The translations under genes and the position numbers were made by a program. Positions 18,756 through 49,460 of a stretch of 64,000 nucleotides of DNA are shown piece by piece (position 1 is the stretch's first letter; each line of letters opens with the position of its first letter). Origin of the DNA: a virus (lineage: Duplodnaviria > Heunggongvirae > Uroviricota > Caudoviricetes). The DNA lies in the IMG/VR virus record IMGVR_UViG_3300028048_001599. One strand, written 5' to 3'. The notes beneath the pieces are model-generated. The model had not been told where the DNA came from and did not search any database. It worked only from the letters and a program-made list of their open reading frames with translations.

Positions 18756-20945
18756 ATGGCTAAGAAACATAAGAAACTTCAAACTATTACTGCTTGTATT
18801 CTTTCGGCAATGCTTGTATCGAGTATGTCTGCAATGACTGCATTTGCGGCAGAAGACGATGCTGAAGGTATTACTGACTGGGACGATGGTGCAGTCGATG
18901 CTGGTACAGATGATACCGCATGGGGTGACGATGATAATACTTATGACAATGGTACTACTGAAGACTTTGTAGACACAGATACAGATTCGGAAGGAACGGA
19001 TGAAGATTTCGGTGGTGACGGTTGGGAAGACCCAGTATATGACGGTGGAACAGATGGAGGTTTTGGCGACGAAGATTGGGAAGACCCAACATATGACGAT
19101 GGAACAGATGATTCTCAGGAAGATGTAGACTGGGGTACAGGCACTGGCGAAGTCGAAGGTGGTCTTGAAGAAGGTGACCTTGGAGAAGGCGATTTCGACA
19201 CAGACGGGGGTGACGAAGACGCTCCTATTGACTGGGACTTAGGCGACGATGATGACGAAGACGCCCCTATTGACTGGGACTTAGGTGACGATGATGACGG
19301 TACTGAAGAAACACCTGATTGGGACTTAGGTGACGATGATGACGGTACTGAAGAAACACCTGATTGGGACTTAGGCGAAGGTGAAGACGGTGGAGAAGAT
19401 ACACCTATTGACTGGGACTTAGACGAAGATGATATTGACAAAACACTTGACTGCGACGGTGATGACGGTAATGAAGAAACACCTGTAGATGATACACCCA
19501 CTGACGACAATCCAGTAGACGACCCTGTAGATGATACACCTACTGACGACAATCCAGTAGACGACCCTGTAGATGATACACCTACTGACGACAATCCAGT
19601 AGACGACCCTGTAGATGATACACCTACTGACGACAATCCAGTAGACAACCCAGTAGACGACCCTGTAGATGATACACCTACAGACGGGGGTGAGGGTGAA
19701 AGTGGTGAAGAAACACCTGTAGACGATCCTACTGATGATAACCCTGTAGACGATACACCTACTGATGGTGGTGAGGGTGAAGATGGCGAAGAAACACCTG
19801 TAGACGATCCTACTGATGATAACCCTGTAGACGATACACCTACTGACGACACACCTACTGATGATAACCCTGTAGATGATACACCTACTGATGATAACCC
19901 GGTAGATGACACACCTACTGATGATAACCCTGTAGATGATAACCCTGTAGATGACACACCTACTGATGATAACCCGGTAGATGACAACCCGGTAGATGAC
20001 ACACCTACTGATGATAACCCGGTAGATGACAACCCGGTAGATGACACACCTGTAGACGATAATCCCACTGACGGTGGCGAAGACGAGAAGCCTGTTGACG
20101 GTGGTGACGATGAGACACCTGTAGAGGGTGATGATACACCTACTGATGATACACCTATCGACGGGGGTGAAGACACACCTGCTGATGATACACCTGTTGA
20201 CGGTGGTGACGATGAGACACCTGTAGAGGGTGATGATACACCTACTGATGATACACCTACTGATGATACACCTACTGATGATACACCTACTGATGATACA
20301 CCCGTTGACGGTGGTGATAGCGAGACACCTGTAGAGGGTGATGACACTCCCACGGACGACAATCCGACAGACGGTGAAGACACACCTGCTGATGATACAC
20401 CCGTAGATGGTGATGAAACACCTACTGACGGTGGTGACGATGAAACACCTGTAGAGAGTGATGACACACCTACTGACAGTGGTGAAGACACACCTTCCGA
20501 TGAAACACCTGACGATGGTGATGCTAAAACACCTGTTGACGGTTCTGAAGACGGCGAAGGTGAGGATAAAACTCCTTCCGATGAAACACCTGCCGATGAA
20601 ACACCTATAGATGGTGCTGGTTCTGAAGATGGTTCTGAAGATGGTTCTGAGGACGGTTCTGAAGACGGTTCTGAATACGGTTCTGAAGACGGTTCTGAAG
20701 ACGGTGATTCCGATAGCGAATACGTTGACGCAGTAGCTCCTATTTCTGATAACACGAATACACCTTCCAGTGGTTCTTATACTGGTGACAGTGATTACAC
20801 ACCTTCCTACTCTTACACAGATGGTGGTTCTGTAGACACTGTTAAGACTGGTGATACAATGCCGATTATGGCAATGGTTGGGGTAGCAATTGCTTCAGCA
20901 CTTGCTGGTATTGCAGCTTTCTTTAAGAGAAAGAGAGAAGACTAA
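18756..20945 (+). CDS. Secreted, extremely acidic repeat protein with a candidate sortase sorting signal. It is a putative cell-wall-anchored surface protein.
   Basis: Signal peptide MAKKHKKLQTITACILSAMLVSSMSAMTAFA. About 600 aa are D/E/T/P repeats (PVDDTPTDDN and similar). The C-terminus is VKTG-DT, then 22 hydrophobic residues, then KRKRED. This is the tripartite cell-wall sorting signal architecture, with KTG resembling sortase B motifs (NPKTG/SPKTG). Confidence 0.75.
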   Translation: MAKKHKKLQTITACILSAMLVSSMSAMTAFAAEDDAEGITDWDDGAVDAGTDDTAWGDDDNTYDNGTTEDFVDTDTDSEGTDEDFGGDGWEDPVYDGGTDGGFGDEDWEDPTYDDGTDDSQEDVDWGTGTGEVEGGLEEGDLGEGDFDTDGGDEDAPIDWDLGDDDDEDAPIDWDLGDDDDGTEETPDWDLGDDDDGTEETPDWDLGEGEDGGEDTPIDWDLDEDDIDKTLDCDGDDGNEETPVDDTPTDDNPVDDPVDDTPTDDNPVDDPVDDTPTDDNPVDDPVDDTPTDDNPVDNPVDDPVDDTPTDGGEGESGEETPVDDPTDDNPVDDTPTDGGEGEDGEETPVDDPTDDNPVDDTPTDDTPTDDNPVDDTPTDDNPVDDTPTDDNPVDDNPVDDTPTDDNPVDDNPVDDTPTDDNPVDDNPVDDTPVDDNPTDGGEDEKPVDGGDDETPVEGDDTPTDDTPIDGGEDTPADDTPVDGGDDETPVEGDDTPTDDTPTDDTPTDDTPTDDTPVDGGDSETPVEGDDTPTDDNPTDGEDTPADDTPVDGDETPTDGGDDETPVESDDTPTDSGEDTPSDETPDDGDAKTPVDGSEDGEGEDKTPSDETPADETPIDGAGSEDGSEDGSEDGSEDGSEYGSEDGSEDGDSDSEYVDAVAPISDNTNTPSSGSYTGDSDYTPSYSYTDGGSVDTVKTGDTMPIMAMVGVAIASALAGIAAFFKRKRED
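19200..20720 (+). repeat. Composite array of imperfect tandem repeats (30-45-bp units, plus a 12-bp gatggttctgaa unit at about 20618..20703)
   Basis: Visible periodic repetition encoding DAPIDWDLGDDDD, PVDDTPTDDNPVDDP, TPTDD and SEDG units. Confidence 0.85.
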
Positions 20946-20975
20946 TTAGTTAGTTTTTATTACCTTTGAATAGAT

Positions 20976-21014
20976 TGGGGGCAACTCACTTATTGTGGGT
21001 TGTCCTTTTTCTTT
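20976..21014 (+). terminator. Probable terminator (imperfect hairpin plus T-tract)
   Basis: gggggcaactcac...gtgggttgtcc followed by TTTTTCTTT. Confidence 0.5.
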
Positions 21015-21124
21015 ACTGTATTACGTCAATGGTTTAATTTAATAATAAAAAAATTATAAATTGTAGTAAAAAATAATAACTAAGGTTTATAATAAATATA
21101 TTGTAATAAAGGTGGTTTTTAGCA

Positions 21125-21865
21125 ATGGTATCTAATACAGGTAATTGTCCATATTGCACAAGGGATATTGATGGTTCTGTACAATTAGAAACAATATCTC
21201 TTGATGGTATTGAGGGTTTAAAAGTTGTGGTTGATGCTCAAGATGGGGTACTATCAATAGGCATTATTACTGAACAAAATACAAAGGCACGTGAATTATT
21301 TCATAAGCACTCTGTTGCTTTTAAGACTGATGCTAAATTTTGTCCATACTGTGGTAAACAGTTAATAAGAACTGACGCATCAGATAAATCGTATGATTAT
21401 ATAATTGATGACATTGAAGATGAATTTTCAGACGACGGTAGTGACAGTCAGACATGTGAAGAAGAGGATATAGACGGAATAGGGGGTGACTTTGATGTTA
21501 TTGAAGATATTGAAGATATTAATGGTTTTGATACTACTGGTAGTAATACTGATTCCGATGATATTGATAACTTCGATTATATTGACTACACCGATGATAC
21601 TAGTTATGCCGATGACATCGACACCTTTGTTGACGATGACACTGGTATAGATGATGGTATATATTCTGAATTTATACCCGAATCAGATGAAGACGACTCA
21701 GGTGATATAGACGACTTCGACGATTCTAATACTAAACATACAGCAGTAGCAAACATGCCGGTTCATTTTGATGTTGACAGTGCTGTTGACGAGGCTTTGT
21801 TTATGATGGGTATAAACCCATATGAAGATTATGGTGTAGATGTGGTGATAGATGATGACATATAA
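21125..21865 (+). CDS. Zinc-ribbon protein with an acidic Asp-rich C-terminal region
   Basis: CPYCTRD...CPYCGKQ zinc ribbon followed by D/E-rich low complexity. RBS AAGGTGGT. Confidence 0.6.
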   Translation: MVSNTGNCPYCTRDIDGSVQLETISLDGIEGLKVVVDAQDGVLSIGIITEQNTKARELFHKHSVAFKTDAKFCPYCGKQLIRTDASDKSYDYIIDDIEDEFSDDGSDSQTCEEEDIDGIGGDFDVIEDIEDINGFDTTGSNTDSDDIDNFDYIDYTDDTSYADDIDTFVDDDTGIDDGIYSEFIPESDEDDSGDIDDFDDSNTKHTAVANMPVHFDVDSAVDEALFMMGINPYEDYGVDVVIDDDI

Positions 21866-22694
21866 AGATATTTTTAACACTATGTCATTTGTATCATTTG
21901 ACATATCAGTAAGAAGCACAGGTTGGTGTAAATATCAGAATGGGGTATTAACCTATGGTTCATTTAGTTTAACATCGAAGGATGAGTTACACCGTAGAAT
22001 GGAGTTTAGGAATAAAGCAATAGAACTTATAGACAATAAGTCATACGATTTTATAGCTATTGAGGACGTTATAGCTGGTTGTAACTTTGAAACAACAAAG
22101 GCACTTGTTCAGTTAAATTCAATAGTTGATGACTTGATTTATCTTCATGTTGTTCCTGAAAACAAAGTATGTCGTATAGGTAACATGATATGGAAAAAGT
22201 ACCTAAAAGATGTTACAAATTATAGGGGTGTCAAGGCAGCGTATGGTAAAGATGAGATAAAGGAGTCTATACAAAAATTAGGATTTGTCGAGGACACTGT
22301 TCAGGACGTATATGATAGCGTAGGAATAGCAATAGGGGTAGTATCACAACTAACGAATCCTACTGACATTCATAAAGCAAAAGCAAAAATACGAACTGAT
22401 TTAACAAAAAGTTATAACTTTTATAGTTACTCTGATGATAAACTTATATATTTTACTAATTCAACAGGTCTTGACGAACTTGATATATCTTTCGATGGTA
22501 CTTGTAGAGATATGCTTGCACAGTTCAAAAAGACAACTATGGATTTAGGTGACGATTACATTTTTGTATTGGATGCTCCAAGGGAGAAATATGGGGTACT
22601 TGCGTTAACAGGTAAATTACCCATGCAAAATAATGATGATAGAATAATAGCTGTTAAAAAGACAGTTAAGATAAAACAAACAAAAGAGGGTTGA
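21852..22694 (+). CDS. Putative RuvC-like Holliday junction resolvase
   Basis: VSFDISVRSTGWC (compare the RuvC GIDPGxxxTGY motif), FIAIEDV (catalytic Glu motif) and a C-terminal DVYDSVGIAIG (D..D.A.A motif). The start is uncertain (21852 or 21882). Confidence 0.5.
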   Translation: MMTYKDIFNTMSFVSFDISVRSTGWCKYQNGVLTYGSFSLTSKDELHRRMEFRNKAIELIDNKSYDFIAIEDVIAGCNFETTKALVQLNSIVDDLIYLHVVPENKVCRIGNMIWKKYLKDVTNYRGVKAAYGKDEIKESIQKLGFVEDTVQDVYDSVGIAIGVVSQLTNPTDIHKAKAKIRTDLTKSYNFYSYSDDKLIYFTNSTGLDELDISFDGTCRDMLAQFKKTTMDLGDDYIFVLDAPREKYGVLALTGKLPMQNNDDRIIAVKKTVKIKQTKEG

Positions 22695-22698
22695 TTTT

Positions 22699-22911
22699 AT
22701 GGAAAAAGTAAATGCTATGATTCACAGTTTAGGTAGGCAGGATACAGTTTCAATTGTAGTTCATATCAACAATAACAACGTACTTGCAAAGTATAAAGGT
22801 AACTACTATACAGCAATTTTTAATCCTTTTGTATGTTTATACTACGTAGATGACAAATACGGTAAGCTATCAAAAGAGGACGCTGAAATAAGATACGGTG
22901 TAAAGCTATAA
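22699..22911 (+). CDS. Hypothetical protein
   Basis: ORF with RBS AGAGGGT. Confidence 0.5.
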   Translation: MEKVNAMIHSLGRQDTVSIVVHINNNNVLAKYKGNYYTAIFNPFVCLYYVDDKYGKLSKEDAEIRYGVKL

Positions 22912-22923
22912 GGGGGTACTTAT

Positions 22924-23274
22924 ATGTTAAATATTAAGGACTTAGATTTATGCTGTGAGAACAATTTGGATTATCTTAAATTAGGTATTTCACCTATTGT
23001 GTTAAATGCTTACTACAATTCAAAAATAGCAAATTGTAGATATATTGATTTTGGTATATCTGGTGCTCCTGTATTTGAGAAGGATATACCTGAAATAGTA
23101 GCTACTTTACGGAAGTATAAGATTAATTCTATAACCTTATCTTCGTCTTATTCAAGTTACTTGAATCTGGTAAATATATTTGCTCAATTCGGGTATACAC
23201 CAAAGGCTTTGGATTATTTACCTAATGGTGTTCCGACTTTACTTCTACAATATGGCTCAAAAGGTAATATCTGA
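22924..23274 (+). CDS. Hypothetical protein
   Basis: ORF with RBS AGGGGGTA. Confidence 0.5.
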   Translation: MLNIKDLDLCCENNLDYLKLGISPIVLNAYYNSKIANCRYIDFGISGAPVFEKDIPEIVATLRKYKINSITLSSSYSSYLNLVNIFAQFGYTPKALDYLPNGVPTLLLQYGSKGNI

Positions 23275-23292
23275 ATATTATTATATTAGGAG

Positions 23293-23586
23293 GTGTTACT
23301 AATGGTAGCTTTGCCGGTAAGTGAGTTGTTGAAAGAACTATTTTCTAAATTATCTACAAGTCAAATAAAGTCATTACTTGTTAATTCTGATATATCAGCT
23401 AGGATAACCCAGGAAAGAGTAAATCGGGGTATGTCACAGGGTGAATTTGCAGAGTTACTTGGGGTAAGTGTACCTAAGTTAAACGAATACGAACATGGGT
23501 ATGATTTCAAGATTTCAGAGTTATCGTCTATACTTGATAAACTAGATATGGACTATAGCATAAATATAACACATGATAGGAGTTAA
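23293..23586 (+). CDS. XRE-family helix-turn-helix transcriptional regulator
   Basis: QERVNRGMSQGEFAELLGVSVPKLNEYEHG is a canonical HTH_XRE signature. RBS GGAGGTG. Confidence 0.7.
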   Translation: MLLMVALPVSELLKELFSKLSTSQIKSLLVNSDISARITQERVNRGMSQGEFAELLGVSVPKLNEYEHGYDFKISELSSILDKLDMDYSINITHDRS

Positions 23587-23588
23587 TT

Positions 23589-23978
23589 ATGATTACACAA
23601 GAAGAGATATTAATGACCGAAAGAAAAAGATTAGGATTTTTTGGACTTCCATGGACATTTACAAAATATTCTATTACACCAAAGAAATTGATTATTGAAT
23701 CAGGTTTCTTTACAAGTTCTGAAAATGAAATACTAATGTATAGAATCACTGACGTATCATATACAAGAACACTTTTTCAGAAAATGTTTGGACTTGGTAC
23801 ATTGACTATATATTCACATGATAAGACAAATCCCTCATTAATAATAAAGAACATAAAAAATTCAAGAGACTTTAAGGAGAAGTTATCTGAAATTGTAGAG
23901 AAGGATAGACAGCGTATGCGTATGCGCCAGACAGAGTTGCTTGAATCTGACAGTATTGATTATGATGACAACTTTTAA
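23589..23978 (+). CDS. Bacterial PH-domain (YdbT/DUF304-like) protein
   Basis: SGFF...E.lmYRItDV...F.GLGTLTIY pattern typical of bPH_2. Confidence 0.45.
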   Translation: MITQEEILMTERKRLGFFGLPWTFTKYSITPKKLIIESGFFTSSENEILMYRITDVSYTRTLFQKMFGLGTLTIYSHDKTNPSLIIKNIKNSRDFKEKLSEIVEKDRQRMRMRQTELLESDSIDYDDNF

Positions 23979-23994
23979 GATTGGAGTGATTTGA

Positions 23995-24444
23995 GTGTAT
24001 AATAAATACCTTGAAGATTTAGGATTAACACGAGATGATTACGATTATACAACTTGGACTGAGGGTAAGAAATTAAAGAAGATTCGTAAGAAGACAGGTC
24101 TTGATTTTCGTGCTTGTTATAATTTTGATAATACAATAGCTTTTTATCTTTACTCCATGTTGAAGTTATACTCAAAGTATACAATAACAGCACTTGATTA
24201 TGAAAAATGTCAATACGGTGATTTTTACGGTACATTGGGTGAAGCTATCAGACAGGTACGTAAAGGTCTGAAACTGTATATTAAATACGGTTTTTCTATG
24301 ATTTCACTGACTGACAAGCAAAAAGGTAAGGTAGCTAAATACCTAGGTGTTTCTATTGATGACTTAAAAGAAGATGCCTTGATATCTGTATATAAAAAGG
24401 CTATGCACTTGTATGCCGATATTGCACCGTATATTTGGGATTGA
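23995..24444 (+). CDS. Hypothetical protein (GTG start)
   Basis: ORF with RBS GGAGTGA. Confidence 0.5.
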   Translation: MYNKYLEDLGLTRDDYDYTTWTEGKKLKKIRKKTGLDFRACYNFDNTIAFYLYSMLKLYSKYTITALDYEKCQYGDFYGTLGEAIRQVRKGLKLYIKYGFSMISLTDKQKGKVAKYLGVSIDDLKEDALISVYKKAMHLYADIAPYIWD

Positions 24445-24454
24445 GGTGAATGAA

Positions 24455-24748
24455 ATGGTAGTAACAAAAAGAATGGTAGAGGATATGTTCTTACAGAATG
24501 TACCCGATGCTAAAATTGAGGTACTTACAGAAGAACCTCAGAGGGAATGGAAACATTGTTGTTGTAATGGTGGTGTAAGTGTAATGTCACCGCAGGTTAT
24601 AAATCAAATGGGGGTACTTGTGAAGTATGCACTTTGTCCATATTGTCATAAGATTATTTATATAGCGGATTATTCAGGTGCTATTCCATTTAAGATGTCA
24701 CCAGATGGGTTTATACTTCCGTCTGACCAACAGCAGATGTTCTTTTAG
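24455..24748 (+). CDS. Hypothetical Cys-rich small protein
   Basis: ATG after TGAGGTGAATGAA. It has CCCNGG...CPYCHK motifs. Confidence 0.5.
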   Translation: MVVTKRMVEDMFLQNVPDAKIEVLTEEPQREWKHCCCNGGVSVMSPQVINQMGVLVKYALCPYCHKIIYIADYSGAIPFKMSPDGFILPSDQQQMFF

Positions 24749-24824
24749 TTTAGCACATCGAATAATTAATAAGTAGAAAACTGTAAAAATTTAGCACATT
24801 TTTGAAATATTTGGAAATAAACTC

Positions 24825-24853
24825 TTGACATTTTATGACATTCATGGTATAAT
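24825..24853 (+). promoter_or_regulatory. Consensus sigma-A promoter
   Basis: TTGACA, a 17-nt spacer, then TGGTATAAT. It lies inside the over-long ORF call 24825..25529, so the true start is 24888. Confidence 0.7.
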
Positions 24854-24887
24854 ATTAGTATATTCAAAAAGTGTCGGAGGTTATAAT

Positions 24888-25529
24888 ATGGCAGATGTGT
24901 TTAAAACCGAAGTATCGGGGCTATCTGAATCAGATGTAACACCGTACTTCTCTATTAATTGTGTTGAAGAAAATATACTTGACCTTAATAAAATTATGAA
25001 AATACCTAATTCAACCTATTCGGTAGAGAAGGATTTGTGCATAACAAACGGTGAATTTGAGTGGATATGTAAAAATTGGGGTTGTTCTTCAAATGTATTC
25101 AATTTGAGTTGTGAAAACAATAAGGTCATATTTTCAACATTAAGTGGTTCACCTATACCCGTATTAAGAAAATTATCATCAATGTTAAACAAATCCCTTA
25201 TTGTAAAATTTGCGTCTGAGTCACCCGGTGAAGCATCAGGAATGTATAAAATAGAAAACGGGGTAGTTACAAGTGAATACATACCTGAAAATTTTTCCAA
25301 TGAATCAATGGATATTTATATGTATTTGTTTGAGGATTATGAATACTTTTATCAGGACGAGGACGGAAATTGGCACGAGAAAACTGAGGAAGATTATGAA
25401 CAGGGTTTGGGTTCAGAAGCTATTGATTACAATTATTATAGTAATTACGATGATGATTATGACTCAGATTATGACGATGAGGACTTGGACTCTTTAGGTT
25501 TTACTGAAGATACAGATATGTATGAATAA
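24888..25529 (+). CDS. Hypothetical protein with an acidic Tyr/Asp-rich C-terminus
   Basis: ATG preceded by GGAGGTTATAAT. C-terminal YDDDYDSDYDDEDLD. Confidence 0.6.
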   Translation: MADVFKTEVSGLSESDVTPYFSINCVEENILDLNKIMKIPNSTYSVEKDLCITNGEFEWICKNWGCSSNVFNLSCENNKVIFSTLSGSPIPVLRKLSSMLNKSLIVKFASESPGEASGMYKIENGVVTSEYIPENFSNESMDIYMYLFEDYEYFYQDEDGNWHEKTEEDYEQGLGSEAIDYNYYSNYDDDYDSDYDDEDLDSLGFTEDTDMYE

Positions 25530-25535
25530 AAATAT

Positions 25536-25570
25536 TAAGTAGCACTTAAAGTGCTACTTTTATTTTATAT
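25536..25570 (+). terminator. Rho-independent terminator
   Basis: agtagcac-ttaaa-gtgctact followed by TTTATTTTAT. Confidence 0.65.
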
Positions 25571-25601
25571 ATTAAAAATAAAATAAAGGAGACCAAATTT
25601 T

Positions 25602-27495: not shown

Positions 27496-27545
27496 TAAAA
27501 AAATAATAACCAATTATTAGTATATAGTAAAAAGGAGGGTTAAAA

Positions 27546-41458: not shown

Positions 41459-41465
41459 AAGACGA

Positions 41466-41499: not shown

Positions 41500-41818
41500 T
41501 GGTATTTTATGGTAAAATTTGTAGAAAGCTCTACGGCTCGATTTAAGGGGATTTTCATAGCCGAGGGGTAGTTTCTCAAATATCAATAAAAAATCGCTCA
41601 CAGGGCTTCACAGGGCAAAATAGAGCTATTCTGAGGTTCAGTTGTCAGGTGGTCGGTTGATATTTGGTTGTAGTTGGTCATTATTGTTAAGTCGGTGGAA
41701 TGACAGATTTTTCCAATGTTGTATTATTTTTCGAGGACATAGAATAATTAAATACTACTTGAATTAGTACCAAAAAATTCATATGTAGCAATAATAAATT
41801 GCAAAGGAGTTGTTAAAA

Positions 41819-42700: not shown

Positions 42701-43253
42701 AAAGAGTAAAACATTGGATTATAGATTAAGACATGCGGCAGTTTCTTATATTACTTCATATTATCGGGACAACTTGCGTGAAATAAGGAGTTCGGAACTT
42801 TATAGTTATGTTCAAACACATAAGGAATTATCAAACTTTGATTATGTAGTTTCTGTGGACACAAAGTCGAATAGTTACTTTTCATATTTACAGAAACTAT
42901 TGAAAGAAATATGTGGTGATGGTGAGCGTGCTGCTGAAAGATATAAATACTATTACGTCAAGTCTTTATACAAGGCTTACGAGGATATAATAGGATATAG
43001 TGTAGGTGGTAGTTGGTCACAGTTGTCTTTACTGATTGCGATGTGTGCATCGTTGGATATTGATTTCAAAGACACAGGGGTATCAATAGATGTACATGTA
43101 GTAAATCTTATACATCGATTGACTAATTACATAATATCCTTGTTTATATTGTACCAGAAGTCTGAGGGGTACGGTGACTTGCTTGTTGCATGTATTGAAG
43201 GTGTGGATATAGACGATATTGTTTCCGATATCATAGAACATAGTAAAGAGTGA
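42693..43253 (+). CDS. Hypothetical protein
   Basis: ORF overlapping the upstream stop. Confidence 0.5.
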   Translation: MARKSKTLDYRLRHAAVSYITSYYRDNLREIRSSELYSYVQTHKELSNFDYVVSVDTKSNSYFSYLQKLLKEICGDGERAAERYKYYYVKSLYKAYEDIIGYSVGGSWSQLSLLIAMCASLDIDFKDTGVSIDVHVVNLIHRLTNYIISLFILYQKSEGYGDLLVACIEGVDIDDIVSDIIEHSKE

Positions 43254-43254
43254 G

Positions 43255-43632
43255 GTGATACTGTTGTCAGAGTTAGACGAGAATGTAGAAACAGAGGGTG
43301 TAGGTGTCACACCAGAAAAAGACATAACACCGATAAAGACTAAGATTATACATACTATTATTTGGTGTTCTTATTTTGTGCTTGGTATAATTATTACAAT
43401 AGTAGCAATGCTTGTACAAAAAGAAATAACGATTAACTACAGTTCTTCGCAAATACCTTTAATAGTACTAATGTTTTTATCAGTAAGTGCTCAAAAGTAT
43501 ATAGGTCTTATGGGAGCAGTAGGGGTATTTTTTGCGATTAAGCGGAAAAGTTTCCCTAAATACTTTGCATTTATTTTTGGATTTTATACAGTCCTTTTAA
43601 TATTTGCTATAATAGGAGTGGTAATACTATAA
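43255..43632 (+). CDS. Small integral membrane protein (3-4 TM helices)
   Basis: GTG start. Hydrophobic helices. Confidence 0.5.
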   Translation: MILLSELDENVETEGVGVTPEKDITPIKTKIIHTIIWCSYFVLGIIITIVAMLVQKEITINYSSSQIPLIVLMFLSVSAQKYIGLMGAVGVFFAIKRKSFPKYFAFIFGFYTVLLIFAIIGVVIL

Positions 43633-45422
43633 TGGAAAAGAAACATCGTGATATAGTGATTAAGTACATGGAGTACTTCACTGAAACAACAGGAAAATCA
43701 GTTGATGACTTTTTTGCAGAGTTGTCAGGGTCGCCATCATGGCTGACATCTAATATTGTATCAACACTGAATAATAAGGGTATAAGTAAAGATAACCTTT
43801 TTGAGTACAAGGACTTAATTCATAGGTACGATAAAAGAGTATCAAAGACTGAGGGTGAGTTTTACACACCTGCTGTATGGTGTAGAGAAGCCCATAAGTA
43901 TATCAAAGACCTTTGTGGTTCAGACTGGGGTAGAGTGAATATTTGGGATGCATCTTGTGGTACTGGAAATCTACTTGCAGAAATTGATTATCCACACGAT
44001 AAGTTGTTCTGTTCAACTTTGAATGGTGAGGACATTGATATTGTTAAGACAAGACTTCCTGATGTTGAATCCTTTAAGCTTGATTTTCTCAATGAACGTG
44101 ATTATGACGATATGAACGAGTTCTTCTCTGAAAATTTACCTAATAGTCTTAGGGAGAAACTTCGTAACAATGAACCGTTCTTGTTCTTTATGAACCCACC
44201 GTATAGTGGAAATACACAGTCAGAGGTAGCAGAAATAATGCGACAGGAAAATCTTCCCAACGCATCTGAGGCATTTTGTCAGTTCTATCATAGGATTGAC
44301 ATGCTTTGTGATTACTATAACCTCACAAATGTTTACATTGCTTTCTTCCATCCGCTTTCAAAATATAAGTACCTGTTTAACAAAACAAGTCAATACAAGT
44401 TTGAGCGTGGTTTTTGTTTTGATAGGAAGGAGTTCAAGGGGACTTCAAACTTTGATACAACATGGTATGTTGGTCTTTACTTATGGAAGTCCACTGAAGC
44501 ACCTGTAAAGATGGATTCTTTTCCATTTATAAGAAAAGAGAATCATGATGGTACTATTGTAGATTGTGAAGAAATATATGTTGGTAACGATACTGACTAT
44601 AAAAAATCGCTCAGGGGTAGTTCCTCGGTGGGGTACATGTTCCTACCTGAATGTAACGGAAATGCAATCGACACTTCAAAGTCTGTAAAGGTTAAGAAAA
44701 ATGCAATAGGCTACTTTTCAAATCCATTTATCGACAAATCATCAGCTATGACAAGTAGTTGGTTTGATACTGTACCTTATTGTGACAACTATTCAATTAC
44801 TCCTGATGTATTTTTCAAGTTTGTACCGTTTGTACTTCTTAATGGTATGCGTAGTTCTGGTGCAATTCAGAACAGTAACTTTACAATTCATAGTCCTGAC
44901 GAGGGACTGGGTTACAAGGATTGGTTAATGGATAACCTCCCTCTGTTTTTGTTCTCACGTCATGCAAGATTCAGGTCAGTAAGGGGTATTGAATACGGTG
45001 GTTCAAAAATTGACATTGCAAACTCGATGTTTCCTGCTAAAAAGACCGATGTTCAGCAGATTATTACAGACGAGGTTCTTCTTGAGGACATCAATAATTC
45101 TGAAGCTAAGAATGATTTCATTGTTCAACTTATAAAATCAAATTATAATAGTTTCAGTGCTCCTGCACGTGACTTTTTCGATTTCTGTATGGTTAATGTT
45201 CTTGACAGTCTTACAGAAAATAAGCGTAAGAGTGACAGTTATGCTGGTGGTACTCAGTGTTGGGATGCTGGTATATTCCAAGTTAGAAAGTTACCTACAT
45301 TCTGGACACCGGATAAAGAAAAGAAGTATTTTGAATTACAGAATGACCTTGTAAGCTCACTCTCAGATGGGGTATATGATTTCGGACTTGTAGACAAGGG
45401 TTGGAAAAAAGAAGTATTTTGA
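43632..45422 (+). CDS. Gamma-class N6-adenine DNA methyltransferase with a long C-terminal (target-recognition-like) region
   Basis: Motif I IWDASCGTGNLL (D/E-x-xCGxGxFL) lies upstream of motif IV FFMNPPYSGN (NPPY). This order is that of the gamma class (Type IIG / HsdM / PglX-like). It is 596 aa with no nuclease motif seen. The 3' end is modified by an 88-bp tandem duplication. Confidence 0.7.
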   Translation: MEKKHRDIVIKYMEYFTETTGKSVDDFFAELSGSPSWLTSNIVSTLNNKGISKDNLFEYKDLIHRYDKRVSKTEGEFYTPAVWCREAHKYIKDLCGSDWGRVNIWDASCGTGNLLAEIDYPHDKLFCSTLNGEDIDIVKTRLPDVESFKLDFLNERDYDDMNEFFSENLPNSLREKLRNNEPFLFFMNPPYSGNTQSEVAEIMRQENLPNASEAFCQFYHRIDMLCDYYNLTNVYIAFFHPLSKYKYLFNKTSQYKFERGFCFDRKEFKGTSNFDTTWYVGLYLWKSTEAPVKMDSFPFIRKENHDGTIVDCEEIYVGNDTDYKKSLRGSSSVGYMFLPECNGNAIDTSKSVKVKKNAIGYFSNPFIDKSSAMTSSWFDTVPYCDNYSITPDVFFKFVPFVLLNGMRSSGAIQNSNFTIHSPDEGLGYKDWLMDNLPLFLFSRHARFRSVRGIEYGGSKIDIANSMFPAKKTDVQQIITDEVLLEDINNSEAKNDFIVQLIKSNYNSFSAPARDFFDFCMVNVLDSLTENKRKSDSYAGGTQCWDAGIFQVRKLPTFWTPDKEKKYFELQNDLVSSLSDGVYDFGLVDKGWKKEVF

Positions 45423-45502
45423 ATTACAGAATGACCTTGTAAGCTCACTCTCAGATGGGGTATATGATTTCGGACTTGTAGACAAGGGTTGGAAAAAAGA
45501 AG
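45319..45502 (+). repeat. Perfect 88-bp tandem duplication (two copies: 45327..45414 and 45415..45502, plus 8 shared flanking bases)
   Basis: Identical 88-mers TATTTTGAATTACAGAATGACC...GGTTGGAAAAAAGAAG are directly adjacent. 88 is not a multiple of 3, so copy 2 puts a TGA in frame and ends the MTase ORF. Confidence 0.9.
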
Positions 45503-45514
45503 GGGGTAATTAAA

Positions 45515-46144
45515 ATGAGACATTTAGATAGTGACACTAAAACAGCGATAAATCGTCTGCGTAGTGTTCTTCAGCATAAAACAATCAAATTCGGGGTATT
45601 TAATAATGTACTCGATATCGAAAAGACTGGTTCTGTTGTTTCTTCAAGTGTGAGCGAGGCTTGTGCTGACGGTCTTTATTCTGAGACAGACTCAAACATA
45701 GCTTTGGATATTACATATGTTACAGCAAAAACAAACATGGTAAATCAGCCTGAATGTCCTCAGCAGTCAATGCACCTGTTACTTCTTCCTACTACAGCGG
45801 ACAAAACATTCCCTGAAATGGTAGAAGTAAAGATGTTTGGCTCTTGTGGTAAACCGTCTACGGTGGGGGTAAATAAAGATACTGGCGATGTTTATCTTGT
45901 TTACGTCTTTGATAAGGAAATACAATTTTTACATTTCGGTACTCTATCTCAGATGGATAAAGAATTTGTCGTATCTGATGACAACATGACAACACCTTAT
46001 GAGTTTGGTATTTTCAAAGCAGCACTTTATAGATTTATCACACGTGACAATGGTTGGGATAATTTAAGAAATAGTATGTATATTCAGTTTAATCTGTCGC
46101 CTATTGTTCGTATGGCAGTTGGTAACGAGCCTGACGACAATTAA
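45515..46144 (+). CDS. Hypothetical protein
   Basis: ORF with RBS AGGGGGTAAT. Confidence 0.55.
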   Translation: MRHLDSDTKTAINRLRSVLQHKTIKFGVFNNVLDIEKTGSVVSSSVSEACADGLYSETDSNIALDITYVTAKTNMVNQPECPQQSMHLLLLPTTADKTFPEMVEVKMFGSCGKPSTVGVNKDTGDVYLVYVFDKEIQFLHFGTLSQMDKEFVVSDDNMTTPYEFGIFKAALYRFITRDNGWDNLRNSMYIQFNLSPIVRMAVGNEPDDN

Positions 46145-46158
46145 GTAAGGAGTCTGTT

Positions 46159-47187
46159 ATGCTTGAACAGATAAAATCATTACCTGATTCTATATGTAAT
46201 ATAATCGAATATTCAAACTGTAGTTCTGTTGAATATATAGCACAGCAGTTAATTATGGATAGATACATCATATCTCCTAATTACACAAACAATGTAGCAT
46301 CTGCTAAATTATTGAAAGACTGCATTAGTGAATCAAACACACTACCACTTCAAGGTAATCGTTGGTTAATAATTGTGGACGTAGATAAATTGGGGGTATC
46401 TGAAAGTTTAAAATCCATGGATTCTGTTGTTGCTACATCTGTTGTGATTTATCTTACGCACAATTATCGAACATTCAGAACGTTGATTGATAGTAGACAA
46501 TACAAACAGCAAGGTAGCACAAACTTTGCAACTCAGTTATACCTTGGTAAGTTGACTGATGCTTCGATTGATTTATTGTATGAATATTATATGAGAGGTA
46601 AAACTCAGGTAGAGCGTGATGTATTCTCAAGTAAGTTAATGAGATACATTAAGAAAAACTATAAATTTAACGCTGACCTTGTATGTGAATTATTCAGTAA
46701 AATCAAGGACGGTGCAAAACCTGTAAGTGAGAAGGAGATTATCGAATTAGTAGGTGTAGGGGGTAACACGCCACAGGCACTAACGATATCCTTATTAACC
46801 ACAACAACAAAATCAGTCGAGGGTAAAAAGCGGTTTTTGAAGAAAAATCTTATGTTGTTTAATGACTTGTCAATAAAATATAGTTATGAAACAACGTATA
46901 GTTATATGATAGCAACACTTAAAGGTATTATAGATATCAAGGAACTTCAGATAAGTGGAAAATATTTTGAGTTTTTCAAAAATATACCTGATAGTTACCC
47001 CGAAAAACGTCTAAAAAGAATAAACAGACTGCATAGATTTGAATATATAATACTTAATAGAATTTCATTGAGACGTGCTTTGGTTCTTCTTAAATGTATG
47101 CAGTCTAATGATTTTGACAAGGAACAAGTAATACTCAGAGGAATTTACGAATATACTAATAGGTTGGGATGTGGCGACAGTGAATAA
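46159..47187 (+). CDS. Hypothetical protein (342 aa)
   Basis: ORF with RBS AAGGAGT. Confidence 0.55.
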   Translation: MLEQIKSLPDSICNIIEYSNCSSVEYIAQQLIMDRYIISPNYTNNVASAKLLKDCISESNTLPLQGNRWLIIVDVDKLGVSESLKSMDSVVATSVVIYLTHNYRTFRTLIDSRQYKQQGSTNFATQLYLGKLTDASIDLLYEYYMRGKTQVERDVFSSKLMRYIKKNYKFNADLVCELFSKIKDGAKPVSEKEIIELVGVGGNTPQALTISLLTTTTKSVEGKKRFLKKNLMLFNDLSIKYSYETTYSYMIATLKGIIDIKELQISGKYFEFFKNIPDSYPEKRLKRINRLHRFEYIILNRISLRRALVLLKCMQSNDFDKEQVILRGIYEYTNRLGCGDSE

Positions 47188-47833
47188 AACAAATGCAACT
47201 TCACCTAATGAATTTTATTCTAAGGTGAAAGGTAAGTACCTTGATGATTGCGACCTTGACTCATTGTCAAGTGAGTTGAAAGGCTTAGTAAATAAATCAA
47301 GGGGTGCAAGGGATGCAAAGCGTAAGGCTGGTTTCACAGATATAGACAAAAACATTGAGACATTTAAGTCTGATATAACTGACATTGATGAAACTGTCAA
47401 TGGTTCAGATTTTGAGGACGTTGACGACTTTGAAGAATCCGAATATTCTGACAGCACTATAGAAAGTGAAAACGAGGATGATATAATTATAGACGAAACC
47501 GATGACGTTGATGACATTGACGAAATGGACGGTATTGGAGTCGATCCAGTACCTGAACCAAAGAAGAAAACTTTAATTAGTGACGCAAGGAACAATGAAG
47601 ATGCTATGGTAAAGGTTGGAATGATAACTTGTATAATTATCTTCTTGGTTATACAGGCATGCTTTGTAATACTATGGGGTATTGACGGTTTTCCACAGGA
47701 AAGAACATTTGGTGTATTTATTCCTACAATAGTTATTGTAGTTCTATACGGTATCATAACAATAGTTGACCTTATAAGGTTTATTAGATATACTATTAAA
47801 ACAAACAAGTCGAAAGGTGGTAAAGACAAATGA
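47171..47833 (+). CDS. Acidic protein with C-terminal TM helices
   Basis: GTG start. D/E-rich middle region. C-terminal hydrophobic helices and a basic tail. Confidence 0.5.
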   Translation: MATVNKTNATSPNEFYSKVKGKYLDDCDLDSLSSELKGLVNKSRGARDAKRKAGFTDIDKNIETFKSDITDIDETVNGSDFEDVDDFEESEYSDSTIESENEDDIIIDETDDVDDIDEMDGIGVDPVPEPKKKTLISDARNNEDAMVKVGMITCIIIFLVIQACFVILWGIDGFPQERTFGVFIPTIVIVVLYGIITIVDLIRFIRYTIKTNKSKGGKDK

Positions 47834-48468
47834 TAGTAAAGATGGCATCTAATGAGTGTGTCGGTAAATTTACATCAAAGCGTAAGATACAGACGGTAGT
47901 TGAGGTAGAAACCATAGAGGATTTAAGGAGTAACTTTAATAATATTAAGACTGCCGACGTTGTTGTTTATAAGGGTGATATTGACACATTTATTGATTCA
48001 TTCACACCGGACAATGTACTTAATGTAGATATTATGTACTCAGTAAACCCTGATATTGTAAATCTATCACTGCTTGACAAGTTAAAGGGGTATAATGTAC
48101 TCTGTAAAGTTCCTGATGGTTATCATAACATGGAACAGCTTCATAGTATCAGTTCAATGTATGGTAACATTAGATTTTGTGGGGGTCATTTACTGGCACT
48201 TGATGGTATAAACATCGGCTTGTTTGATGTTGAAAAAGAAAAGAGATATGTATTTAAGGATGAATATAGCTGTCAGGAAGATATTAAGACACTTGCAGAC
48301 CTTGATGAACTTGGTATAACTTACGCTTTCACCTCACCTAAGGAAAATGTACCTAAGATACCTAAGATTAAAGCACCGAAAGTTCTAAAAGATACAACTA
48401 AAAAACCAAAAGTTTCTAAACCCAAGAAACAACCTAAATTCAACGTAGGTGGTATGGGTGCTTTTTAA
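47830..48468 (+). CDS. Hypothetical protein with a Lys/Pro-rich C-terminal tail
   Basis: RBS AAGGTGGTAAAGACA. The tail is KIKAPKVLKDTTKKPKVSKPKKQPK. Confidence 0.5.
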   Translation: MIVKMASNECVGKFTSKRKIQTVVEVETIEDLRSNFNNIKTADVVVYKGDIDTFIDSFTPDNVLNVDIMYSVNPDIVNLSLLDKLKGYNVLCKVPDGYHNMEQLHSISSMYGNIRFCGGHLLALDGINIGLFDVEKEKRYVFKDEYSCQEDIKTLADLDELGITYAFTSPKENVPKIPKIKAPKVLKDTTKKPKVSKPKKQPKFNVGGMGAF

Positions 48469-48485
48469 GTTAGGGGTTGAACATT

Positions 48486-49460
48486 ATGAAAAAGTTAATC
48501 ACTAATTTAACAGAGCAATATATCAAGATGGAGGCTAAAGGTAAACAGGGTTTGAGATATAAACTTTACGGTTTTATAATAAGGTGTTATAAACGGCACG
48601 AAGGTAAAACAGTATCTCGAAAGTGGTTCTGGTTTTGGGGTCGATTTCACTTGCCTCCTTTTTGGTGGCGAACTAAAACATTTAAGATTATCACTTCATG
48701 TATGGTTATTTTGACTGTTGGTATTGTGGTTTTATACCTTTTATCAAATCAAAATGCGGAAAAAATTGTTTCTGATATAAGTTTAACTCCAATAGAGCGT
48801 TCAAGTAATGGAAGTAGAGAAAATACTAATTCTGTTGAGTCATCAGATGACCGTCCTAAGATGTATGAGGGTTCACTTGATATAGAAGAAACAGAGAACT
48901 ATGATTTCTTACGCTATGACTTATCTGATGCAGTAGCAAAGAATAGTGATACTGTGGGTTGGTTGACGGTTGATTATTGTGGCATAAACTACCCTGTTGT
49001 TCAAGGTACTGATAATGACTTCTATCTTAAACATGATTTTTACAAGAATTATAATTCTCATGGTTGGATTTTTCGGGATTGTAGATTTAATGATACAACA
49101 TATCATAATACAGTACTTTATGGTCACAATCTAATGGTTGGGGGTATGTTTTCAAATTTATCGTCTATATTTGATAGCAAGGAGCCTGTTTATGTAAAAT
49201 TTCAATCTACTTCAAGCACTTATATTTATAAGGTTGTTTCAGTGTATACAACTGAACCTGTTTTGGAGTACATTGAAATGAATTTTGATTCTATTGAAAA
49301 GTTAAGAAAATTTCACAAGGATATATTGGCAAGTAACCAGTGGAAATATGCTCCAAAAGAGGACTTAAAAGATGATGACAGAATATTAACATTATCTACT
49401 TGTTATGGTGATAATAGATTAGCTGTTCATTGTAAACTTCTTGCTAGTGAGATACTTTAA
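48486..49460 (+). CDS. Class B sortase (transpeptidase)
   Basis: N-terminal TM anchor. His motif LYGHN. Catalytic Cys motif TLSTCYGD (TLxTC). About 37 kDa, typical of SrtB. ATG 48486 lies 9 nt after GGGG. Confidence 0.75.
   Translation: MKKLITNLTEQYIKMEAKGKQGLRYKLYGFIIRCYKRHEGKTVSRKWFWFWGRFHLPPFWWRTKTFKIITSCMVILTVGIVVLYLLSNQNAEKIVSDISLTPIERSSNGSRENTNSVESSDDRPKMYEGSLDIEETENYDFLRYDLSDAVAKNSDTVGWLTVDYCGINYPVVQGTDNDFYLKHDFYKNYNSHGWIFRDCRFNDTTYHNTVLYGHNLMVGGMFSNLSSIFDSKEPVYVKFQSTSSTYIYKVVSVYTTEPVLEYIEMNFDSIEKLRKFHKDILASNQWKYAPKEDLKDDDRILTLSTCYGDNRLAVHCKLLASEIL

Follow-up and report, generated by a model that had tools for sequence, protein, structure and literature searches.

pXO16 (pBTHD789-1, NC_018516.1) is a 350-kb aggregation-mediated conjugative megaplasmid of Bacillus thuringiensis sv. 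israelensis. Its class A sortase adjoins a 3,526-aa protein with an LPRTG cell-wall sorting signal (CWSS), and both lie far from the replication backbone. Sortase-bearing conjugative megaplasmids of the human gut, the Hodors, are also large and were first mistaken for huge phages; according to a 2026 preprint, viral databases mislabel them (PMC12934698). Hodors have a GC content of 44–47%, carry Rep_3, ParA/B/M and VirB4/VirD4/VirB6, and have the gene for their class B sortase next to those for SecYEG and trigger factor. This sortase and the signal-peptide/CWSS surface proteins of Hodors were read as a conserved surface module, the substrates being folded giants of >2,600 and >7,300 aa (PMC12934698). 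On the conjugative plasmid pCF10 of E. faecalis, the LPXTG-anchored proteins PrgA, PrgB and PrgC tune aggregation and surface exclusion, with PrgA acting partly as a physical barrier (bioRxiv 10.1101/2020.06.18.156562). Known recognition motifs of class B sortases are (S/P)PXTG in C. difficile, NPQTN and NPKTG in S. aureus and B. anthracis, and (E/Q/V)(V/P)PTG for Spy0129 of S. pyogenes.

The stretch of DNA analysed here (64 kb, hereafter the window) has a GC content of 34%, unidirectional coding and a PolA-type backbone. Ten of its genes occur in the same order in pXO16, namely those for a member of a ~200-aa family, a DnaG Zn-ribbon protein, a RuvC-like protein, an NAD ligase, a ParB-HNH protein, a ligase-C-like protein, a 596-aa MTase-like protein, a 342-aa protein, a 212-aa protein and PolA. 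The sortase gene and the gene of a hyper-acidic surface protein are both embedded in this backbone (Table 1). Further features in common with pXO16 are genes that lie nearly all on one strand and are mostly orphans, cytoplasmic hyper-acidic proteins, and an own sortase together with a CWSS surface protein. However, the identities to the window genes are only 25–41%, and pXO16 has neither a sortase at the site between the 212-aa protein and PolA nor an exported polyanion. The habitats differ as well: pXO16 resides in Bacillus from soil and insects, whereas the host of the window is probably an uncultured low-GC member of the Bacillota from animal gut or rumen.

Table 1 Features of the acidic-protein gene, the sortase locus and the shared backbone (positions within the window)
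Feature	Position	Strand	Remarks
Acidic-gene promoter	18658..18686	+	TTGACA, 17-nt spacer, TG-extended TATAAT; 12/12 consensus positions
Acidic-protein gene, putative sortase substrate	18756..20945	+	729 aa, ATG start; exported, hyper-acidic, low-complexity
Sec signal peptide of acidic protein	18756..18848	+	aa 1–31, MAKKHKKLQTITACILSAMLVSSMSAMTAFA/AEDD, AFA/AE cleavage site
N-terminal zone of acidic protein	18873..19433	+	ten D-W-[D/E/G] motifs within acidic residues
Pentad repeat stalk, Asp/Thr/Pro-rich	19473..20555	+	D-D-[T/N]-P-[T/V]; TRF periods 15, 27, 30, 42, 45, 75, 81 nt
GSED tetrapeptide repeats	20616..20711	+	TRF period 12, 7.2 copies
Candidate sortase recognition pentapeptide TVKTG	20838..20852	+	aa 695–699; predicted cleavage T698/G699
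Hydrophobic segment and basic tail KRKRED	20859..20942	+	22 residues, aa 702–723
Intrinsic terminator of acidic gene	20977..21007	+	13-bp stem, 6 GC pairs, then T-run
Operon partner, 220 aa	47171..47833	+	acidic cytoplasmic part, two C-terminal TM helices
Operon partner, 212-aa backbone protein	47830..48468	+	directly upstream of sortase
Class B sortase gene	48486..49460	+	324 aa from ATG; Pfam, TIGR03064, PDB, Foldseek, clade alignment
Clade-specific cytoplasmic N-terminal extension	48486..48680	+	65 aa, Trp-rich motif KWFWFWGRFHLPPFWWRTKTFK; not covered by bacterial homologues
Sortase membrane anchor helix	48681..48743	+	aa 66–86
Sortase catalytic domain	48900..49457	+	His214 49125–49127, Cys306 49401–49403, Arg311 49416–49418
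Terminator-like hairpin closing sortase operon	49483..49511	+	
Ten-gene backbone collinear with pXO16	10574..57377	+	both target genes embedded in it
Backbone gene starts	10574, 12018, 21852, 26200, 37007		12018 DnaG Zn-ribbon, 21852 RuvC-like, 26200 NAD ligase, 37007 ParB-HNH
Backbone gene starts, continued	41810, 43632, 46159, 47830, 53322		53322 PolA

The acidic-protein gene is a monocistronic cassette with a perfect consensus promoter and a terminator of its own, and a ribosome-binding site (AAAGGA) lies upstream of its ATG. The protein consists of 29.2% D, 8.6% E, 13.2% T, 10.3% P and 11.2% G. With 276 acidic and 13 basic residues its net charge is − 263, and only five basic residues fall in the mature part. 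No folded domain was detected with Pfam or NCBIfam. The repeats are also present at the DNA level (24 TRF rows, periods of 12–90 nt), and a minus-strand ORF of 546 aa (19115..20755) was rejected as a gene, being a shadow of these repeats. Staphylococcal Ser-Asp repeat (Clf/Sdr) proteins are sortase-anchored and cross the wall with a long, low-complexity stalk that is strongly acidic. In these chromosomally encoded proteins, which carry LPXTG for SrtA, the stalk lies under a folded ligand-binding domain, whereas in the protein of the window the acidic repeat covers the whole mature length.

At the C-terminus of the acidic protein, TVKTG is followed by DT, a 22-residue hydrophobic stretch and KRKRED. 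In a six-frame scan of the window (ORFs of at least 60 aa), 3 of 138 ORFs ended in a hydrophobic segment with a basic tail; the other two are minus-strand shadow ORFs and were rejected. This agrees with the preliminary description, in which a tripartite sorting signal was ascribed to no protein of the window but the acidic one. Orthologues were found on two contigs, L003, with an identical C-terminus, and the divergent L088. The L088 orthologue shares 20 of the first 25 residues (signal peptide region) and 28 of the last 41 (C-terminal module) with the acidic protein, and the DW motifs recur in it. It also has a promoter of its own (10/12 consensus positions, extended − 10), but its repeats are wholly unlike those in the window. 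Its motif is VVQTG instead of TVKTG, so that V-x-T-G-D-T is invariant between the two, and the hydrophobic segment and the basic tail are kept. A membrane anchor conserved without the motif, considered in the preliminary description, was thus not observed. A signal that is kept while the remainder diverges is characteristic of sorting signals that are processed and not of a plain anchor. Judged by its sequence, this candidate substrate has every feature of a sortase substrate. The agreement of the KTG core with SrtB substrates had been put too strongly before, as only part of the motif fits: the K/Q-T-G end followed by an acidic residue is found in many clostridial substrates, whereas position 2 holds Val in place of the nearly universal Pro, and Pro is also missing from position 3.

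The second gene encodes an intact, genuine class B sortase. A mechanically generated ORF list starts it 9 nt earlier at a TTG, whereas all homologues begin at the ATG. The motifs and the N-terminal anchor named in the preliminary description were recovered, with VLYGHNLM containing His214, TLSTC containing Cys306, Arg311 in addition, and one transmembrane helix preceding the class B fold. The Pfam search and the structure prediction proposed there gave a match to Sortase PF04203 (E = 2e-11) and an AF2 model whose top 18 PDB matches in Foldseek were all of class B (target TM-scores 0.62–0.81). The best NCBIfam model was likewise that of class B (TIGR03064, 113 bits, which is under the equivalog cutoff of 153.75), and SrtB entries of the PDB were matched with E-values down to 2e-23. 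The catalytic triad, whose absence had been contemplated earlier, aligns with H120/C209/R217 of C. difficile SrtB and is invariant in 18 clade members at 43–99% identity. The enzyme is apparently active. It shares with characterised class B sortases the fold, the TLSTC/YGHN/Arg triad and the N-terminal membrane anchor, but the identity is at most 33% and none of them has the Trp-rich cytoplasmic extension.

The sortase gene is flanked by a backbone gene and an ArdC-like gene, a setting different from that in Hodors. It was found at this fixed backbone position in 6/6 relatives that cover the site, with identities that track those of its neighbours. The 212-aa protein is kept in all relatives (31–99% identity) and has a pXO16 homologue at the collinear position, and a counterpart of the 220-aa gene with similar size and architecture occupies the same place in the relatives. 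The sortase belongs to the core of the family and is much more widespread than the lineage-specific acidic protein.

We tentatively favour, at a probability of roughly 45%, that the window belongs to an element of the pXO16 superfamily with a private class B sortase, which anchors the polyanion, likely for the control of mating contacts. The element would be large, extrachromosomal and coded on one strand, with the sortase as a stable core gene, and in this lineage it would also carry a strongly promoted cassette for an exported, intrinsically disordered polyanion of 667 residues. Sec would export the acidic protein, and the hydrophobic segment with the basic tail would hold it in the membrane. 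The element's sortase would then cut between Thr and Gly of [T/V]-V-[K/Q]-T-G and hand the protein to a peptidoglycan precursor, coating the wall with a dense negative brush. Given that Pro is missing from the motif, the pair of enzyme and signal is probably orthogonal and independent of host sortases, which would be useful to an element moving between hosts. As with the Prg proteins of pCF10, the most likely role is the control of cell–cell contact during transfer, either by surface exclusion or by tuning how mating cells aggregate. As side effects, the brush would shield phage receptors and change the surface charge. The superinfection exclusion, receptor masking and altered charge suggested in the preliminary description are plausible, but fit the surface-exclusion and aggregation biology of plasmids at least equally well. 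A sortase with an acidic wall protein would be a known plasmid strategy in an unusual form: the Prg proteins of pCF10 also depend on a sortase for anchoring, but they rely on sortase A of the host with a canonical LPXTG, folded functional domains are present in PrgA and PrgB, and there is no sequence similarity between Prg proteins and the acidic protein. Compared to the folded giants of Hodors, the candidate substrate is a disordered polyanion.

The acidic protein may instead be a type I membrane protein or be processed by the host, with the element's sortase anchoring other proteins such as giant adhesins of the kind found in pXO16 and Hodors; we regard this as rather unlikely. The two genes are 28 kb apart in different transcription units, and their co-occurrence was seen on a single contig, the window. 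Two contigs with sortases of 46–50% identity have no CWSS protein in the 28–35 kb that are readable, which means that the sortase must act on further or different proteins. The element is at least 219 kb in size, of which the window represents about 30%, and in pXO16-like relatives a long distance separates the genes for CWSS giants from the replication backbone. The difference in distribution between the two genes and the non-canonical motif without Pro also fit this reading. For C. difficile SrtB, the closest solved enzyme, two independent studies found that NVQTG is not cleaved (PMC4155245, PMC4371152), and among the genuine substrates adjoining the nearest bacterial SrtBs, position 2 is almost always Pro and in no case Val. 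On the other hand, class B enzymes that take Val at position 2 are known, as Spy0129 accepts EVPTG, QVPTG and VVPTG (PMC3019223), and one bacterial SrtB with 41% identity to the sortase adjoins a substrate with NTKTG. Furthermore, no alternative candidate substrate was found in any readable sequence (window scan and relatives), and both the x-V-x-T-G-D-T spacing directly ahead of the hydrophobic segment and the basic tail were kept while the remainder diverged beyond alignment.

The preliminary description attributed the window to a phage. As a jumbo phage or phage-plasmid, it would use sortase and acidic protein to decorate the wall during infection or lysogeny, for superinfection exclusion or receptor masking. 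The repertoire is indeed phage-like (PolA with an intein, NAD ligase, RuvC-like resolvase, HNH, methylases, a CHAP hydrolase matching PHROG endolysin families, and dUTPase in a relative). Coding is unidirectional and the acidic gene resembles an autonomous moron-like cassette. The backbone gene order was also seen in six contigs of 118–232 kb (L102–L107), which are catalogued in IMG/VR as viral genomes. However, neither terminase, portal, capsid or tail genes nor any other virion gene were found in the window and ~170 kb of relatives' flanks (Pfam, PHROGs), and a comparison with 50,697 phage records revealed no DNA similarity. PolA is 41% identical to that of pXO16, but at most 30% to those of phages. 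The ParB-HNH protein is 36% identical to its counterpart in pXO16, and a search of 72,556 plasmids and 50,697 phages gave no other relative. Of the proteins encoded in the window, four are lipoproteins, one is a secreted LRR giant, and the CHAP hydrolase carries a Sec signal peptide. The family markers (sortase, substrate C-terminus, 342-aa protein) were not found in IMG/VR. The mislabelling of Hodors, and pXO16 as the only characterised relative, experimentally proven to be conjugative (PMC9673590), again point away from a phage. We thus consider the phage attribution improbable; in its gene content and order the element looks like a relative of pXO16. It would probably move by conjugation, although no transfer (tip/T4SS), relaxase, Rep or partition genes were seen in the 64-kb window.

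That the sortase is a pilin polymerase like Spy0129 or SrtB of the S. pneumoniae type II pilus, making mating fibres from the acidic protein or another subunit, is very improbable: the Spy0129-type motif resembles VVQTG and TVKTG (PMC3019223) and the fold matches include both pilus SrtB structures, but among the class B matches the pilus enzymes are the poorest (ranks 16–20, 22–23% identity), the acidic protein has no pilin Ig-like domain or pilin-motif Lys, and no pilin genes adjoin.

The preliminary description had proposed a phage-encoded class B sortase with an N-terminal membrane anchor. An intact enzyme of this kind is present: the motifs VLYGHNLM and TLSTC were found, an arginine follows five residues past the cysteine, and a transmembrane helix spans aa 66–86. 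The open reading frame starts with ATG in every homologue, while the mechanical ORF call begins with a TTG 9 nt upstream. Pfam PF04203 matches with an E-value of 2e-11 and covers profile positions 1–124 of 125, corresponding to a full-length sortase beta-barrel domain. His214 (YGHN), Cys306 (TLSTC) and Arg311 align with the residues of Clostridioides difficile SrtB and are invariant in 18 sequences, so that the loss of the triad envisaged as a counter-argument was not seen in the clade alignment. In the NCBIfam ranking, TIGR03064 (class B, E = 1e-32) lies far ahead of class D (6e-4) and class E (7e-3), with a score of 113.4 bits that is below the SrtB equivalog cutoff of 153.75 bits. The recommended structure prediction was run as an AF2 model from 18 clade sequences and reached a pLDDT of 73, with 80–92 in the catalytic domain. 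A Foldseek search with this model returned class B enzymes at all of ranks 1–18. The best solved relatives are the SrtB enzymes of C. difficile, B. anthracis, L. monocytogenes and S. aureus, with the catalytic His, Cys and Arg aligned. Based on sequence and model, the enzyme is assignable to class B (SrtB, MEROPS C60B) rather than to classes A, C, D, E or F, and peptide cleavage and wall transfer are its predicted activities. By sequence comparison it is a divergent SrtB branch, with best bacterial relatives of at most 42% identity.

The transmembrane helix is preceded by a cytoplasmic N-terminal extension of 65 aa, which is conserved in the clade and absent from ordinary sortases. It contains a Trp-rich motif, KWFWF.GRFHLPPYWWRTKTFK, that is invariant across the clade alignment. 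The extension may dock to neighbouring membrane or backbone proteins. The motif is located just ahead of the helix and is without counterpart in characterised sortases.

In a database of 5.8 billion proteins, the sortase clade comprises 19 clusters, 42–99% identical over the full length, on contigs of up to 219 kb. Beyond the clade, the score falls from 261 to 138 bits and the matches are ordinary bacterial SrtBs, aligned over the catalytic domain only. All six relatives whose sequence reaches the respective site carry the sortase at the same position. The gene order there is an MTase-like gene (~597 aa), genes of ~210 aa and ~341 aa, a small protein with two transmembrane helices, a further ~210-aa gene, the sortase, an ArdC-like gene and, later, PolA. 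The sortase closes its operon, with a terminator-like hairpin behind it. Its identities across relatives parallel those of the neighbouring genes, which, together with the fixed position, indicates a long-standing, selected core gene of the family. The ArdC-like zincin lies directly 3' of the sortase in most relatives. Its MPTase-PolyVal domain is characteristic of proteins that serve conjugative elements and phages against host defences, through delivery or early expression.

The putative substrate, an acidic protein of 729 aa, was confirmed on the forward strand. Its Sec signal peptide consists of MAKKHKKLQ, a hydrophobic core and the cleavage site AFA|AEDD. Reading Cys14 of this peptide as a lipoprotein cysteine was ruled out, since it lies before the hydrophobic core. 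The strong negative charge reported earlier was borne out by the composition (Asp 29.2%, Glu 8.6%, Thr 13.2%, Pro 10.3%), with 276 acidic and 13 basic residues and a net charge of −263. Three repeat zones were distinguished, namely ten DW[D/E/G] motifs, DD[T/N]P[T/V] pentads and GSED tetrads, all of which are tandem repeats at the DNA level. The tripartite C-terminus was likewise recovered as TVKTG-DT, a hydrophobic segment of 22 residues and KRKRED. It is the only such signal in the window, as had been claimed: in a six-frame scan of 138 ORFs, no other real ORF has a hydrophobic-plus-basic C-terminus. On the reverse strand, a 546-aa Ser/Val/Gly-rich ORF (19115..20755) is not a gene but the shadow cast by the acidic repeats. 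The acidic gene is an autonomous cassette. Its promoter, TTGACA-17-TG-TATAAT, agrees with the consensus in 12 of 12 positions, the ribosome-binding site is AAAGGA, and a terminator with a 13-bp stem lies right 3' of the stop codon.

Orthologues of the acidic protein were located through the conserved RuvC-like neighbour, because direct homology searches were swamped by low-complexity matches. A search with the whole protein yielded only low-complexity acidic or Pro-rich proteins that do not share the termini, and an exhaustive HMMER search with the last 88 residues returned low-complexity noise only. Neither the acidic protein nor the 281-aa gene upstream was recovered by exact look-up; either assemblies break in the repeats or start codons differ. 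Scans for the C-terminal module found a single identical fragment of 2.1 kb in JGI and none in IMG/VR. One Logan contig begins within an identical copy of the gene. By way of the RuvC-like neighbour (70% identical), a syntenic orthologue of 600 aa was found on contig L088 (7422..9224). It contains 31% Asp and 15% Glu, its repeats are wholly different and it carries its own extended −10 promoter. The signal peptide is conserved (20 of 25 residues identical), as is the C-terminal module, which reads …DGGAID-VVQTG-DTAPIFALVGTLVISALAGIAAFFKKKKED in L088 and …DGGSVD-TVKTG-DTMPIMAMVGVAIASALAGIAAFFKRKRED in the window (28 of 41 identical). Although the repeats are unalignable, V-x-T-G-D-T is invariant between these two lineages, the only ones available. 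The conservation of both termini despite diverged repeats indicates selection on export, acidic composition and the sorting signal, including V-x-T-G-D-T. The preliminary description had allowed for a transmembrane anchor kept without the motif in relatives; the opposite was found in L088.

Assembly breaks in the acidic repeats were seen repeatedly: contig L003, which has an identical C-terminus, starts within the gene (1..676), L101 is a fragment of 2.1 kb, and the start of contig L005 is a further case. Such genes would therefore be systematically under-detected, and co-occurrence statistics from short-read assemblies would be biased.

A KTG core matching SrtB substrates had been proposed for the sorting signal. 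TVKTG and VVQTG indeed end in x-T-G, but Val occupies the canonical Pro position, and neither is a canonical class B pentapeptide (N/S/P-P-x-T-G/N). Substrates adjoining the nearest bacterial SrtBs carry NP[K/Q/D/E]T[G/N/S], SPKTG, LPKTG or VPKTG, with position 2 nearly always Pro and never Val. An exception, NTKTG, adjoins a bacterial sortase 41% identical to that of the window. NVQTG is not cleaved by CdSrtB (PMC4155245, PMC4371152), whereas the class B sortase Spy0129 accepts EVPTG, QVPTG and VVPTG (PMC3019223), a partial precedent for Val. The two genes are 28 kb apart, and the acidic gene sits in a variable region common only to the window and L088. No protein with a cell-wall sorting signal was found in the 28–35 kb read on two more distant contigs with sortases of 46–50% identity, and both genes were seen together on the window alone. 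Weighing distance, variable region and atypical motif against the Spy0129 precedent, we regard the pairing as a reasonable inference. That the acidic protein is a substrate of the sortase is plausible, although resting on two lineages and a non-canonical motif, and the two may form an orthogonal enzyme–signal pair.

In the proposed mechanism, the polyanion would be exported by Sec and retained in the membrane through its C-terminal hydrophobic segment and basic tail. The SrtB of the element would then cleave it after Thr698, and the product would be joined to lipid II and built into peptidoglycan. Each chain of the resulting brush would be ~670 residues long and carry ~270 negative charges. 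A polyanion at the surface is a firmer conclusion than its processing by the sortase, because the protein, even if uncleaved, would be exposed as a type I membrane protein. By analogy, the likeliest role of such a polyanion would be control of cell–cell contact during transfer, since both the PrgA/PrgB proteins of pCF10 and the aggregation phenotype of the Bacillus thuringiensis sv. israelensis megaplasmid pXO16 are analogues. In pCF10, sortase-anchored PrgA is a steric barrier that gives surface exclusion, while PrgB mediates aggregation (bioRxiv 10.1101/2020.06.18.156562). Receptor shielding and a changed surface charge would be collateral effects.

The assignment of the element to phages is probably wrong. 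No terminase, portal, capsid or tail protein was detected with Pfam and/or PHROGs in the window (every ORF of at least 300 aa, ~50 ORFs in total, in a 64-kb window of a larger element) or in the precomputed Pfam tables of relatives. At the DNA level, the window shows no similarity to 50,697 phage records (megablast) or 72,556 plasmid records. Sortase-like ORFs occur in 21 of the 50,697 phage records, but all are at most 34% identical or cover less than one third of the query, and unannotated fragments make up the majority. No mention of a sortase was found in a set of large-phage papers. At the protein level, PolA is at most 30% identical to phage polymerases and 41% identical, over 85% of its length, to that of pXO16 (pBTHD789-1, 349.6 kb). 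Plasmid matches of ParB-HNH are confined to copies of pXO16 (36% over 83%), and phage matches are absent.

pXO16 is an experimentally established conjugative, aggregation-mediating megaplasmid; it has hardly any homologues in databases, and its tip transfer locus of 25 kb is non-canonical (PMC9673590, PMC6199540). The plasmid was rebuilt as a whole from annotated chunks and searched with the window proteins and family profiles. Ten collinear matches were obtained, which map window positions 10.6–53.3 kb to 169–262 kb of pXO16 in strict order (E-values 4e-7 to 2e-207). The collinear backbone, the very large size and the near-exclusive coding on one strand are all pXO16-like. Neither a T4SS nor a relaxase or Rep was detected in the window, and the tip locus (FtsK-like and AAA ATPases, hydrolase) and ParM of pXO16 have no homologue within it; by collinearity, the tip transfer locus would lie upstream. 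The sortase of pXO16 differs in being class A and adjoins a 3,526-aa protein with a signal peptide and an LPRTG-TM-RRRK signal.

Pointing the other way, six contigs labelled as viral in IMG/VR (118–232 kb) have the same collinear backbone with a PolA of ~40% identity and without a sortase, and the flanks of these relatives hold backbone genes only. In IMG/VR, neither the sortase, as single sequence or as profile, nor the 342-aa backbone protein gave a match, and the scan for the FtsK-like transfer ATPase of pXO16 used single-sequence patterns, which are too specific. It may be that these contigs are megaplasmids with a wrong label, or that the group as a whole has viral ancestry; viral labels are known to be unreliable for elements of this kind. 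On a reading that we consider unlikely, the element is a genuine virus of gut Bacillota, either jumbo phage or phage-plasmid, in line with the IMG/VR labels of the backbone relatives, and its orthogonal pair of sortase and sorting signal, with a Val-type motif foreign to the host, covalently grafts a polyanion onto host peptidoglycan. This reading retains some weight because at least 155 kb of the genome lies out of reach beyond the window (a 99% identical relative sits on a scaffold of 219,087 bp). If true, a sortase encoded by a virus, and a virus rewriting the wall of its host chemically, would each be without precedent.

According to a 2026 preprint, sortases were previously unreported in phages, and conjugative megaplasmids of the human gut, termed Hodors, account for two groups of 'huge phages' that bear sortases; they combine SrtB with giant proteins carrying cell-wall sorting signals (PMC12934698). 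Membership of the window in this group was rejected because GC content (32–40% compared to 44–47%), plasmid markers (Rep_3, ParABM and VirB4/VirD4, absent in the window) and SrtB context (between the 212-aa backbone gene and the ArdC-like gene instead of beside SecYEG and trigger factor) differ.

GTDB representative genomes contain no member of the sortase clade and only ordinary bacterial SrtBs of at most 42% identity; therefore, neither a prophage nor a host could be assigned from GTDB. The nearest bacterial sortases belong to MAGs of uncultured Bacilli, Erysipelotrichaceae and 'Tenericutes' from human, goat, sheep, rabbit and rumen samples, which suggests a low-GC gut Bacillota host.

Taken together, the system is best classed with a kind already known, that of sortases carried by mobile elements together with their own cargo. 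It is distinctive in its Val-type motif, a substrate without a folded domain, and a sortase with a cytoplasmic extension inside a replication backbone. The family of the window is previously unrecognised and related to pXO16. If the pairing is real, the anchoring enzyme and its cargo, which carries a non-proline sorting motif, are both brought in by a mobile element; such a self-contained surface display, independent of the host, could serve as an orthogonal sortase tag. Being a pure polyanion and no adhesin, the cargo would speak for electrostatic or steric control of contact between cells, of mating or of phage adsorption. Through the window, pXO16 (350 kb, 'terra incognita') is tied to gut and rumen elements of 120–220 kb, possibly larger, and to IMG/VR 'virus' contigs. 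This offers a comparative handle on its unexplained biology and is a further warning that sortase-bearing 'huge phages' may be megaplasmids.

The window has a GC content of ~34% (32–40%), 75 of its 76 ORFs are on the forward strand, and no tRNAs were found in it. Recognisable genes encode PolA with an intein, NAD ligase, a RuvC-like resolvase, a DnaG Zn-ribbon protein, ParB-HNH, an N6-methylase-like protein, the ArdC-like zincin, an SPFH protein, a CHAP hydrolase and a BspA-type LRR protein. The window is rich in envelope genes, with four lipoproteins, the secreted CHAP hydrolase, the secreted LRR giant and several membrane proteins; lipoproteins, CHAP hydrolase and SPFH/Band-7 protein form a dense envelope-remodelling gene set.

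Coordinates of the features discussed (nucleotides of the window)
Feature	Coordinates (strand)	Remarks
BspA-type LRR protein and preceding large ORF	1..8338	2,156 aa; preceding ORF runs off the 5' end of the window
Backbone common to pXO16, window family and the six IMG/VR contigs	10574..57377	NAD ligase, ParB-HNH, ligase-C-like, 342-aa, 212-aa, PolA
Acidic protein	18756..20945 (+)	729 aa
Hyper-acidic cytoplasmic proteins	21125..21865, 47171..47833	
RuvC-like resolvase	21852..22694	
NAD-dependent DNA ligase, apparently split	26200..27495 and 41810..42700	two genes 14 kb apart
Four lipoproteins, CHAP hydrolase, SPFH/Band-7 protein	28642..29607, 30333..31169, 35114..35890, 38730..39623, 33574..34611, 31215..32792	lipoproteins predicted by lipobox Cys
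Class B sortase	48486..49460 (+)	324 aa
Cytoplasmic extension of the sortase	48486..48680	
ArdC-like zincin	49574..50680	HEMGH motif
PolA (family A)	53322..57377	intein at ~aa 809–1048 by Pfam Intein_splicing

The CHAP peptidoglycan hydrolase differs from a typical endolysin in its Sec signal peptide. The LRR protein combines a Sec signal peptide with Ig-like domains and lacks a sorting signal, and LRR_5 giants recur in the relatives' contigs L004, L086 and L087. RuvC-like proteins of ~40% identity (P0171 and P0217) are encoded on contigs of 341 kb and 652 kb, which may be far larger related elements or chromosomally integrated ones. Hyper-acidic cytoplasmic proteins without a signal peptide recur in the superfamily; DNA mimicry and anti-restriction are possible functions. 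In the pXO16 record, two such ORFs (73954..74685 and 233777..235210) contain 70% and 47% Asp + Glu; as analogues of the acidic surface protein they were ruled out, since they lack signal peptides. A 246-aa Zn-ribbon protein with an acidic tail is encoded just 3' of the surface-protein gene and is conserved in L088. The PolA orthologue of L005 (1,066 aa) is without an intein, while that of L100 (1,445 aa) contains a LAGLIDADG-type intein. One of the two ligase genes comprises the adenylation and OB domains, the other matches the C-terminal part of a phage NAD-ligase family, and both have collinear homologues in pXO16 and the IMG/VR relatives.
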